13,036 nucleotides of DNA, taken from the IMG/VR virus record IMGVR_UViG_2724679140_000014; one strand, 5' to 3'. The notes beneath the pieces were generated by a model. The model worked only from the letters and a program-made list of their open reading frames with translations, did not search any database and was not told where the DNA came from. A program made the translations under genes and the position numbers. Numbering within the stretch: position 1 is the first letter of the stretch; every line of letters begins with the position of its first letter. Origin of the DNA: a virus. Its lineage: Duplodnaviria; Heunggongvirae; Uroviricota; Caudoviricetes. Shown here in pieces: positions 1,267-3,433 of this stretch.

Positions 1267-1295
1267 ATGCAAACCATGCTAAACCATCGTATAAT
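1267..1295 (+). promoter_or_regulatory. Candidate sigma70 promoter (perfect -10 TATAAT at 1290-1295, weak -35 about 17 bp upstream)
   Basis: TATAAT hexamer read directly in the int/orf80 intergenic region; the -35 match is poor (ATGCAA). Confidence 0.25.
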
Positions 1296-1358: not shown

Positions 1359-1601
1359 GTGTTTTTCAATGAAAAGGTATCCCCTGCTTGCGGCGAAGGG
1401 CTGCAACTGGCGTTAATGGCAAATCGTGAATTCTGGTCAACATACGATCCGGAAGACAAATCAACAGCCCCCACAAAACACGAGGTAGTCAGTTTTTTAC
1501 GCTCGCGTGGCGCATCGAAAAATCTGGCTGAAAGCATCGACAAGGTGCTGAGGCCCACCAGCCTTAAATGTGGTGGGCGACCTAAGAAGTGGAAACGGTA
1601 A
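1359..1601 (+). CDS. Hypothetical small protein (80 aa, GTG start)
   Basis: ORF with a Shine-Dalgarno-like AAGGAG 8 nt upstream of the GTG, followed by a strong intrinsic terminator. No recognisable family. Confidence 0.35.
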   Translation: MFFNEKVSPACGEGLQLALMANREFWSTYDPEDKSTAPTKHEVVSFLRSRGASKNLAESIDKVLRPTSLKCGGRPKKWKR

Positions 1602-1606
1602 TCACA

Positions 1607-1636
1607 ATAGCGGCCCCTTGCGGTCGCTATTTTTTT
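1607..1636 (+). terminator. Rho-independent terminator
   Basis: 9-bp stem ATAGCGGCC/GGTCGCTAT (one G-U pair) with a 6-nt loop, followed by a T6 run; sits right after the orf80 stop. Confidence 0.6.
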
Positions 1637-1665
1637 GCAAAAAGAAAGCGTAATCAATGAGATAA

Positions 1666-1705
1666 AAAACAGTGAGTACCGTTTTAAAACGGTGAGTACT
1701 GTTTT
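1666..1705. promoter_or_regulatory. Two tandem 20-bp dyad-symmetric operator-like sites upstream of alpA
   Basis: AAAACAGTGAGTACCGTTTT (1666-1685) and AAAACGGTGAGTACTGTTTT (1686-1705), each with inverted AAAAC/GTTTT flanks around a GTGAGTAC core, 20 bp centre to centre. Confidence 0.4.
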
Positions 1706-1770
1706 TCCCGCCCTGCCCTGTTTTACCGTATTTATCACCGGAATACGCCGGATTAACGAGGTAAAACACG

Positions 1771-1977
1771 ATGGAAGTAATCAGAAAAATTCTTACCCGT
1801 CAGGAAGTAAAAAATATTCTGCGCATCAAGGCAGACAGTTCGCTACAGGACATGATCAACGCCGGAAAATTCCCGAAAGGCTTCAAAATCGGTCTGCGCC
1901 GTGTTGGCTGGTATGAAGATGAAGTGCTGGCCTGGCTGAAAGAGCGCGAGGAAGAAGCGCGCGGAACGGCTGCGTAA
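1771..1977 (+). CDS. alpA: AlpA-family transcriptional regulator (Phage_AlpA, excisionase-like HTH), 68 aa
   Basis: Small protein with the AlpA-like pattern (..FPKGFKIGLRRVGWYEDEVLAWLKERE..) directly downstream of a P4-family integrase; GAGG 9 nt upstream of the ATG. Confidence 0.85.
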   Translation: MEVIRKILTRQEVKNILRIKADSSLQDMINAGKFPKGFKIGLRRVGWYEDEVLAWLKEREEEARGTAA

Positions 1978-2259
1978 TGGTGTGAGGCGTAACGCGATGA
2001 ACATAACAAAAAGCGCCCCGTTGCCGGAGCGCCCTTGCGAACAATTAACCTGCTGCGAAAAAAATGGATCAGTGCAGGGGAATTATATCAACCGTGTGGC
2101 GAAGCGCCACAATTGCCGGATAACAGGCAAAACAAAGGCCACCCGCTACGGTGGCCCCTCGACACAAGCTACACGTTATCCCCAACGCATGAGCATAGCC
2201 AACAATGCCACATTTGCGGCTGGTGGGCAATGTGATCAGTGTGCTGGCTTGCTGGTGGG

Positions 2260-2457
2260 CTATTCCTGCTCTTTAGTATCGCCATGCTGCGATGTTTTCC
2301 AGGCATGCGATCCCATTTTTGTGCGCCTGTACTCTTTAAGGAATTTCTCAAGAGCAAACGAACAAGGTGCGAATCTTTCCTGTTCTTGTTCGCTTACCGC
2401 ATTTTTGCGTTGTTTTTTCCTGGATGAGGATAATTTCTTTAATGATTTGTCAGTCAT
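2260..2457 (-). CDS. Possible small basic protein (65 aa), weakly supported
   Basis: ORF just downstream of the 2515-2694 gene on the same strand. It ends in ..KEQE like that gene, and the 3' end repeats the DNA motif TCCTGCTCTTT (2264-2274 and 2518-2528). Weak RBS. Confidence 0.2.
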   Translation of the reverse strand: MTDKSLKKLSSSRKKQRKNAVSEQEQERFAPCSFALEKFLKEYRRTKMGSHAWKTSQHGDTKEQE

Positions 2458-2514
2458 CGTATATACCTGTAACCCTGTGCGCCACAGTTCATCACTCCAC
2501 GGCGCTAGTGATGG

Positions 2515-2694
2515 TTACTCCTGCTCTTTGGCCTTGCGACGCTGGCGGCGTTTGATCTCGCCGCGCATGGCTGCACTTATAAACTGCCCTGTACTTTCGC
2601 CTTCTTCTTTCACGTTTTCCATGCCTTCAATAATTTCATGGGCAATACGTGCAGTTACAGATTGTGATTTTGCATTCTTTGGACCTGTTGCCAT
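2515..2694 (-). CDS. Hypothetical small basic protein (59 aa, MATGPKNAKSQ..RRQRRKAKEQE)
   Basis: Internal ATG of the 2515-2733 ORF preceded by a strong RBS (AAGGAG, 6-nt spacer); a promoter-like -35/-10 (TTCAAA/TATATT on the minus strand) and a GTGTAAGACA operator-like site lie immediately upstream. Confidence 0.45.
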   Translation of the reverse strand: MATGPKNAKSQSVTARIAHEIIEGMENVKEEGESTGQFISAAMRGEIKRRQRRKAKEQE

Positions 2695-2715
2695 GTCTAA
2701 CTCCTTATGTTGTTG

Positions 2716-2796
2716 GTGTAAGACAATATACACGAAAAAAAATTATTTTGAAGGCTTGACGTGTAAGACACTTGTATTTTACATTGTGTCTTACAC
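2716..2796. promoter_or_regulatory. Divergent promoter/operator region with three copies of a 10-bp GTGTAAGACA motif
   Basis: GTGTAAGACA at 2716-2725 and 2761-2770 (direct) and TGTCTTACAC at 2787-2796 (inverted); TTGACG -35-like at 2756-2761 on the + strand; minus-strand -35/-10 candidates at 2749-2754 and 2726-2731. Confidence 0.5.
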
Positions 2797-2893
2797 CTTG
2801 TTAATGCAAGGCACAGAAACGACGAAACCCCGCACTGTAGGAGCAGTAACGGGGCTTCTAACCACCAACGATAGCAGAAGTATCGAGGTAGCT

Positions 2894-3433
2894 ATGAGAA
2901 ATCATACCACACACCCGCAAGGGCGGGACTCGCACAACCTGAATAAAGCGGGTATGAAAAACCTGTTGATCGCCACTGCCAGCCAGGGCTATGATTTACC
3001 CGCACCAGCAAAATCTGGTGCCGGGATTGGCGTCCTGGTATTTAACGAAGCGCACAACACGCGCCCTGCGTGTTTTTTTGTGCCGGATAGTCACACCTTA
3101 TCAATGGTGGGCTGTATGGGGGCGGAGCAATCCGCGCCGGGTTCTTCGTTAACCGGTTACGCCAACCCTGTACAGTCCACCGCCAGCGAAATTGGCGTTT
3201 CCTGCGGTGGGTTTATTAAACCTAACGAAGAGGCTGCCAACATGGCTACTACCCCTACCCTTGTACATTCTCAAACTGCCTTTATCTGGCGCTTTATCAT
3301 CTTTGGCGCGTCAGAGTCCCAAATCATCCACGTCACCGCCTGGACGGAACGCGAAGCGCGTAACCATTGCCCGTCAGGTTGTGTCGCTGTATTCGCCGCC
3401 CGTATTCGCCAGGGGGTGCACCATGTGCAATAA
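2894..3433 (+). CDS. Possible CDS (179 aa) of unknown function; the coding part of a long stop-free frame
   Basis: 3' portion of the 483-aa ORF. GAGG 5 nt upstream of the ATG at 2894 and a hairpin (2822-2855) in the putative leader. Ala/Gly/Ser/Thr-rich composition is atypical, so this may be non-coding. Confidence 0.25.
   Translation: MRNHTTHPQGRDSHNLNKAGMKNLLIATASQGYDLPAPAKSGAGIGVLVFNEAHNTRPACFFVPDSHTLSMVGCMGAEQSAPGSSLTGYANPVQSTASEIGVSCGGFIKPNEEAANMATTPTLVHSQTAFIWRFIIFGASESQIIHVTAWTEREARNHCPSGCVAVFAARIRQGVHHVQ

Follow-up and report, generated by a model that had tools for sequence, protein, structure and literature searches.

Introduction

How helpers turn on Gram-negative PICIs and capsid-forming PICIs has been a question since 2018, with transcription of alpA as the trigger. 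The alpA promoter (PalpA) is the control point of induction in Gram-negative PICIs (PMC6092414, PMC11773190, PMC10803314), being auto-activated by AlpA and turned on by the helper phage (PMC6092414, PMC11773190, PMC10803314, and the cf-PICI preprint). Helper induction of alpA is independent of SOS (PMC6092414) and partly independent of AlpA (PMC6092414, PMC11773190, PMC10803314), and in reporter work the promoter was found to be activator-dependent with no repressor reported (PMC6092414), its activity being weak without AlpA and dependent on trans factors (PMC6092414, PMC11773190). The cis elements of PalpA and the helper inducer were left undefined in these studies (PMC6092414, PMC11773190, PMC10803314).

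A first-pass annotation of the window (the whole 13,036-nt stretch of DNA analysed here) described two adjacent dyad sites just upstream of alpA, read them as arranged for cooperative binding by a dimeric HTH regulator with AlpA or helper-phage regulators as the suggested binders, and proposed that this locus may be the control point of satellite induction, the last of which agrees with the three reports cited above. The questions addressed here are what kind of element the two dyads form and what most plausibly occupies them.

The host island and its distribution

The window opens with a tyrosine integrase gene (1-1242), and downstream of alpA it encodes DUF4222, a DUF927 primase, SSB, ProQ/FinO, a PerC-like protein and terS. 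The co-directional order int-alpA-primase, together with the SSB, PerC-like and terS genes, is that of a PICI/cf-PICI satellite. Of 5426 complete E. coli genomes, 98 contain near-identical DNA, located at tRNA-Pro beside yejM. Related islands at that site (L001, L074) carry major capsid, decoration and terS genes as well, so the host element is a PICI and probably a capsid-forming one. The alpA upstream region is more widespread in a diverged form (80-85% identity), which occurs in 373/5426 complete E. coli genomes (about 7%), O157:H7 included. A search of genome contigs with the AlpA peptide returned only distant relatives from Acidobacteria and Alcanivorax.

A tandem pair of dyads upstream of alpA

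The two near-identical sites lie exactly where the first-pass annotation had put them (Table 1), head to tail with a period of 20 bp and 18/20 identity. They also occupy the place that had been claimed for them, following the orf80 terminator hairpin (stem 1606-1631) and preceding alpA. Each unit consists of an 8-nt arm, a 4-nt centre GAGT and an inverted 8-nt arm (AAAACRGT-GAGT-ACYGTTTT), with 7/8 arm complementarity in both window sites and 8/8 in site 1 of the most frequent allele type besides that of the window (N type, for example L004). The dyad centres are 20 bp apart in the window and N types, bearing out the proposed two-turn spacing, and 19 bp apart in L069. A third, perfect palindrome is formed at the junction because the two sites abut without a spacer, and because the two copies have their arms swapped, positions 1665-1706 as a whole are also an imperfect palindrome with 21-nt arms that are 81% complementary. 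The half-site ACYGTTTT has exactly four occurrences in the 13 kb window, all within the dyad element, and the four ACNGT cores alternate in orientation at 9-11-9 bp spacing, on one helix face.

The pair is non-random. A period-20 tandem pair with two or fewer mismatches was found in 0/300 dinucleotide-preserving shuffles, a tandem pair at any period from 15 to 25 in 7/300, and a 40-mer palindrome of equal quality in 1/300; these counts rule out a chance origin of the tandem pair.

Table 1. Positions in the window of the dyad element and of the genes and signals around it
Feature	Position	Strand	Description
Putative orf80 promoter, -10	1290..1295	+	TATAAT consensus; GTATAAT invariant in five diverged alleles, flanks vary
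orf80	1359..1601	+	80 aa, small helical protein with basic GRPKKW tail; candidate dyad occupant
Terminator-like hairpin and T7 run, 3' of orf80	1606..1638	+	stem 1606-1631: 10 bp, 5 G-C pairs
Distal dyad (site 1)	1666..1685	.	AAAACAGTGAGTACCGTTTT; AAAACAGT-GAGT-ACCGTTTT
Perfect 16-bp palindrome at junction of both sites	1678..1693	.	ACCGTTTTAAAACGGT; inverted repeat, read from sequence
Proximal dyad (site 2)	1686..1705	.	AAAACGGTGAGTACTGTTTT; AAAACGGT-GAGT-ACTGTTTT
Fold-back hairpin, 5' arm	1719..1727	+	pairs with Shine-Dalgarno region; 9-bp perfect helix with 1760-1768
Candidate alpA -10, weak	1724..1729	+	TACCGT; invariant in all alleles
Direct repeats, 10-bp period	1736..1754	+	CACCGGAAT / CGCCGGATT; invariant block, triplicated in L047
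Fold-back hairpin, 3' arm	1760..1768	+	9-bp helix; overlaps Shine-Dalgarno GAGG (1759-1762)
alpA	1771..1977	+	68 aa, MerR/excisionase-type winged helix; Pfam PF05930 Phage_AlpA, 4.5e-8

Selection on the dyad arms

Alleles of the region were gathered from IMG/VR by matching the invariant block TTTACCGTATTTNYCACCGGAATA, which lies outside the dyads, and this yielded 64 loci with 27 distinct sequences. In site 2, both 8-bp arms (16 positions) are unchanged in 27/27 distinct alleles, and all variation is confined to the 4-nt centre (GAGT, GGGT, GGGA, GACT or TGGT). The arms of site 1 are degenerate over the same 27 alleles (AAAACAGT/CGGT/CGAT/CGTT/CTGT; ACCGTTT/ACAGTTT), with changes that are single and never compensated, its centre is highly variable, and the exact 20-bp unit of site 1 has been lost in two independent natural variants (L006 and L028). 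The invariance of site 2 is seen across considerable divergence: between the window type and the N type the dS of the adjacent orf80 is saturated, the 14-bp spacer 3' of site 2 is mostly different, and across all alleles the terminator is present at the same place with differing sequence. The diagnostic differences between the two dyad copies are likewise stable across many alleles.

On this allele comparison the dyad arms are under strong purifying selection, and since the arms are conserved while the centres are free to vary, the pattern is that of a protein operator rather than an RNA helix. The uncompensated arm changes of site 1 and its loss in two lineages suit a primary operator with an auxiliary one. 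In our judgement the element is very probably a two-site protein operator, predicted to lie at the candidate alpA promoter and to gate transcription of the master activator. The regulator-site layout that had been proposed for this locus therefore holds as far as the two dyads and their position in the sole non-coding stretch before alpA are concerned; the binders proposed with it are not the best supported ones, for the reasons given below.

The putative alpA promoter and leader

A sigma-70 consensus scan from the terminator to alpA found no consensus promoter, and a scan with our own position weight matrix for sigma-70 gave weak candidates only, none of them convincing. Of the TAnnnT hexamers whose position fits the fold-back hairpin of Table 1, only TACCGT is unchanged in every allele. 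With TACCGT as the -10, transcription would start at about 1737 and the dyad centres would fall at -41.5 and -61.5. An alternative -10, [T/A]ACTGT at 1697-1702, lies within the proximal site and would place the dyads over the core promoter.

One pair of the fold-back helix has changed on both sides with pairing fully kept, being A-U in 13 alleles and U-A in another 13. Given a start at about 1737, the helix would form only in read-through transcripts from upstream, and it may thus insulate alpA from read-through transcription of orf80; this logic would favour the TACCGT promoter. Fold-back inhibition of read-through transcripts is known in IS10, where the logic is similar to that of the Shine-Dalgarno-sequestering helix upstream of alpA.

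Repeats common to attL and the alpA leader

AlpA has a PHROG match annotated as 'excisionase and transcriptional regulator', and the structures nearest to its model are BldC, RdfS and the GIsul2 excisionase. Proteins of the BldC, RdfS and Xis types also act at att arms, and the sites that they usually recognise are direct repeats, occupied in head-to-tail fashion or by filaments, and not palindromes (PMC11963761). A search for sequences common to the attL arm and the alpA upstream region of the same islands identified the motif CACCGGAWT, not the dyad half-site. This motif is present in 2-5 copies in the attL arms (tRNA-int) of L001 (11575-11612), L074 (12052-12175) and L069 (155-245), and its counterpart in the Salmonella island L082 (90-98) is CCGGTAT. 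ACYGTTTT is absent from the attL-int region of L001, and the full dyad half-site is not among the 7-mers common to attL and PalpA in L074 (only CTGTTTT) or L069. An excisionase-type site would show same-orientation repeats of about 10 bp and a motif recurring in the att arms; the dyad half-sites alternate in orientation and do not recur there.

The CACCGGAWT repeats are therefore a candidate binding motif of an AlpA/excisionase-type protein at its own promoter and at attL. In Salmonella islands whose AlpA is 72-73% identical, the CCGGWAT repeats are kept and the AAAACGGT dyads are absent; the recognition-helix stretch of the two AlpA proteins is nearly identical (QDMINAGEFP versus QDMINAGKFP). 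Because the attL motif is a different one and the Salmonella islands are without dyads, the dyads constitute a second, separate element of which AlpA is not the most obvious occupant.

The orf80 gene and its association with the dyads

The gene immediately upstream of the dyads is a real one, since orf80 shows a dN/dS of 0.09-0.17 against its relatives. It has a good Shine-Dalgarno sequence, and the TATAAT at 1290-1295 is presumably the -10 of its own promoter. The structure model of Orf80 has three helices (pLDDT 77). Searches of Pfam, PHROGs and NCBIfam gave no family match and no DNA-binding family, and Foldseek found no significant PDB neighbour of the model, so that Orf80 is a candidate DNA-binding protein as read only from a helix-turn-helix-like pattern and the basic tail. 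Orf80 corresponds to the stand-alone C-terminal domain of a larger family, with 572 HMMER matches that are mostly 190-280 aa long. Genes of this family lie between int and alpA wherever the neighbours are visible (L076, 1641-2363; L082; L243, 1501-2109; L244, 1501-2232), and in L242 (1501-2193), where only the start of an alpA-like gene is visible, that gene is immediately downstream. A possible parallel to the family is provided by the 'iolg/icg' genes of PICMIs (PMC10803314).

At every dyad-bearing locus orf80 is directly upstream of the dyads, about 60 bp away, and an orf80-based scan of IMG/VR yielded 53 loci on essentially the same contigs as the dyad-based scans. In five alpA lineages without an orf80-family gene the dyads are absent. 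An exact GGT-N4-ACC dyad core, a pattern chosen post hoc, was found in 6/8 intergenic regions between an orf80-family gene and alpA (chance 0.015-0.09 each) and in 0/5 alpA upstream regions without such a gene; L242 is without the pattern and each of the window sites is one base off it. As in the window, A/T flanks surround the GGT...ACC arms of the dyad in L243 and L244, two islands in which the Orf80 domain is 53-54% identical to that of the window, compared with only 37-39% for AlpA. The dyads thus track orf80 rather than AlpA, which is the reason for considering Orf80 as the occupant.

Candidate occupants and other readings of the element

Tentatively, we regard the dyads as an operator of Orf80, which is the most likely occupant. 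In the mechanism that would follow, Orf80 is made from its own constitutive-looking promoter immediately upstream of an operator pair that sits directly before a weak, factor-dependent alpA promoter. The proximal site would serve as a high-affinity operator and the distal site as a weaker, auxiliary one. An Orf80 dimer on both dyads would keep PalpA shut in the quiescent island; infection by the helper phage would relieve this block, and AlpA might then lock the switch on through its own, separate CACCGGAWT repeats. The identity of the occupant, the sign of the regulation, any cooperativity between the sites and the position of the promoter are all inferred. Several observations weigh against an Orf80 operator. 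The protein is without a DNA-binding family match or PDB neighbour, and the adjacency of about 60 bp confounds the co-occurrence, because genes and sites so close together would be co-inherited whatever their function. The GGT-N4-ACC pattern is weakened by its post hoc choice and by the exceptions given above. The homologous dyad of L243 follows directly on the stop codon and precedes a T8 run, so that it could be a plain terminator. PalpA has been published as activator-dependent with no repressor (PMC6092414), in constructs that may or may not have carried an orf80 homologue.

It is possible, if rather unlikely, that the dyads are instead the site of AlpA auto-activation. Four winged-helix monomers or two dimers would then sit on the ACYGT cores with their wings in the A/T tracts and recruit RNA polymerase from about -41.5 and -61.5, giving the published positive feedback. 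AlpA alone does activate a PalpA reporter that is otherwise weak (PMC6092414, PMC11773190), the region is without a consensus promoter, the four ACNGT cores share one helix face at 9-11-9 bp, and, if TACCGT at 1724-1729 is the -10, the dyad centres would be at classical activator positions. A related TTACCGT recurs both in the attL arm and upstream of alpA in islands that encode no small DNA-binding protein other than AlpA. What speaks against AlpA is that the attL arms share the CACCGGAWT 10-bp direct repeats and not the dyad half-site, that the Salmonella islands with an AlpA 72-73% identical keep CCGGWAT without dyads, and that its structural relatives of the BldC, RdfS and Xis types bind direct repeats rather than palindromes (PMC11963761). 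The first-pass annotation's choice of AlpA or helper-phage regulators as binders is accordingly not the best supported one, given that another repeat suits AlpA better, that no similar sites turned up in the phage genomes searched, and that it is orf80 with which the dyads co-occur. A non-island trans factor, either a helper-phage inducer or a host regulator, that docks on the dyads and turns on alpA seems to us improbable. Such a factor would suit the other alpA promoter types, which bear other sets of upstream repeats (in L073 resembling P2 Cox boxes), and these differences suggest that each type of alpA promoter answers to a different helper; the variation of the dyad centres from island to island could mirror different helpers as well. 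It would also suit helper induction of alpA without SOS and partly without AlpA (PMC6092414, PMC11773190, PMC10803314). No match to the element was obtained by BLAST in 50,697 phage genomes, and an IMG/VR scan for AAACGGT-N4-ACCGTTT gave only isolated single matches outside satellites and no phage with clustered sites, although both are weak tests. No LexA, CRP, IHF, PurR or TrpR consensus was recognised in the element by eye.

We consider it quite improbable that the element acts as RNA, forming one long A/U-flanked hairpin or two small ones in orf80 read-through transcripts and insulating alpA by back-up termination or attenuation. The region folds better than its shuffles (z = -3.46), the 40-nt palindrome is predicted to form a hairpin followed by U5, positions 1677-1694 give a marginal terminator-like match (7 pairs, 3 G-C), and the homologous dyad of L243 stands between a stop codon and T8. 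The alleles argue otherwise and show no consistent covariation: 12/17 pairs are constant, and what variation there is mostly disrupts pairing, with unpaired cells at four pairs. At the sole pair to have changed on both sides (from G-U to U-A, 4 alleles), another 4 alleles are unpaired. In the variants that retain a single site the long hairpin is lost. The stems consist largely of A-U pairs, whereas a terminator requires G-C; moreover, a strong terminator is already present 30 bp upstream, and Rfam gives no match at the dyad site. That the pair has no function and simply reflects a palindromic spacer recently duplicated by slippage is barely credible, although the 20-bp unit has been gained or lost by slippage (L006, L028) and the centres of both copies change in parallel in some lineages (GAG/GAG, GGG/GGG, GACT/GACT), a pattern suggestive of one copy converting the other. 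Against this reading, the site 2 arms do not vary among lineages with saturated synonymous sites, the copies keep their diagnostic differences over many alleles, and the same architecture recurs in distant islands.

Tandem dyad operators as a kind are textbook, and the value of this one is that it provides a defined handle on the induction question: a 40-bp, precisely bounded candidate control site under strong selection, which belongs to a promoter type found in about 7% of complete E. coli genomes and directs attention to the neighbouring orf80, whose product could be a regulator. Should the dyads be bound by AlpA, they are an ordinary auto-regulatory site; if Orf80 is a repressor, the activator-only model of induction needs revision. 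A wider reading, in which Orf80 and its family of 200-280-aa proteins are the missing master repressor of Gram-negative PICI-type satellites with the dyads as operators, appears unlikely to us. Were it true, helpers would induce by inactivating Orf80 (anti-repression, compare Stl) and not by supplying an activator.

Comparison with known regulatory systems

The layout resembles lambda OR/OL-type switches in having two adjacent dyads of about 17-20 bp, with centres about two turns apart, at a position predicted here to be the promoter of a master regulator, and in that one site is strong or invariant and the other weaker or auxiliary. The two differ in that Orf80 has no detectable relationship to CI or Cro, and in that the dyads here have 8-bp arms around a 4-bp centre and abut without a spacer.

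In P4, the promoter PLL precedes vis, a gene of the AlpA family, and the Cox and Ogr proteins of the helper P2 converge there with satellite regulators. PalpA is similarly the promoter of an AlpA/Vis-family gene adjoining int in a satellite. The site of the late activators P2 Ogr and P4 delta is a TGT-N12-ACA dyad near -55; in contrast, no such dyad was seen by eye on either strand of 1640-1740, and direct repeats like Cox boxes were seen only in the other alpA promoter type (L073). The dyads are not known to have a counterpart in P4.

Should Orf80 be the occupant, the hypothetical likeness to SaPI Stl would be that of a constitutive island repressor, acting on the promoter of activation genes and lifted by the helper. 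Orf80 differs from Stl in having only 80 aa and no sensor domain, and the genes here are co-directional, not divergent; the published switch of Gram-negative PICIs, too, is activator-based with no repressor (PMC6092414). BldC, lambda Xis, RdfS and TorI share the AlpA fold, and the half-site, an ACYGT core with a T tract, has the form of their targets, a short core contacted in the major groove beside an A/T stretch contacted in the minor groove. However, their sites are direct repeats with the motif also at the att arms, whereas the dyad half-sites alternate and do not occur at attL; this site pattern is better matched by the CACCGGAWT repeats at 1736-1754 than by the dyads.

Pae AlpA is a Q-like antiterminator, with contact residues extending to 142 and a ring-forming N-terminal segment, that binds a single GGGACG element (ABE) between -35 and -10 as a monomer, at a promoter that also has a pause signal resembling a -10 (PMC9371919, PMC7969949). 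It has in common with the present case the AlpA name and a site in the promoter of co-directional downstream genes. The protein studied here differs in being a simple winged helix of 68 residues, the 40-bp dyad pair is unrelated to the ABE, and there is no GGGACG in the region.

Additional observations on the island

Repeats of TAGCTAYACG, both direct and inverted, occur in L001 at 11615-11690 (attL-int) and at 22003-22026 (near the right end of the island), and these are probably the arm-type integrase sites; a reading of the dyads as such sites was rejected for this reason. Replication origin and pac site readings of the element were also rejected, as were CRP and IHF sites. The resemblance of TATCACCG at 1733-1740 to a lambda CI half-site was dismissed on account of its second position, which is variable between alleles. 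For a LexA box (CTGT-N8-ACAG), only TACTGT is present, with no partner at N8 as judged by eye, and alpA induction is SOS-independent (PMC6092414).

The orf80-alpA region is prone to rearrangement. Exact 20-bp deletions at about 2500 in L006 and about 1641 in L028 (oriented) have each left one dyad, L047 carries a 10-bp triplication of CACCGGAATA, and in the gene for protein P0013 a deletion fuses orf80 codon 42 to alpA codon 22, with the whole control region gone.

A different type of alpA promoter is found in L070-L073, 150-300 bp upstream of alpA and without orf80 or dyads, where a strong TTGACT-18-TATTCT/TATGCT promoter is accompanied by long palindromes just 3' of int (AATTGGTTCCTAATTGGTACCAATTAGGAACCAATT). 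In L073, three direct repeats CATTATTTAAAGTNAGAAG lie upstream of alpA, and these resemble the P2 Cox box (TTAAAGNCA). The gap between orf80 and alpA is 574 bp in L069 versus 169 in the window, and within the extra ~400 bp of L069 (2040-2215) there is an iteron-like array of four or five copies of TTTTGAGACAACATT. The Salmonella island L080 has an iteron-like array of about eight copies of AAAACTTCCA upstream of alpA (2215-2440).

Farther downstream in the window, two terminase-small-subunit-like ORFs lie on opposite strands, at 8731-9279 (+, phrog_141) and 9966-10568 (-, phrog_57), the second of which may derive from a neighbouring element past the right end of the island. Two Rfam matches at gathering level were obtained on the plus strand: positions 3002-3078 match the Hfq-binding RNA isrK (80 bits), and positions 3100-3187 match C4, an antisense RNA of the P1/P7 immunity type (75 bits). 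Both matches fall inside a 483-aa ORF (1982-3433) in which the Ash family signal is confined to approximately the last 200 residues, so that this ORF is probably not a single gene; the island appears to carry an immI-like module, comprising a C4 RNA and icd/ash, downstream of alpA.
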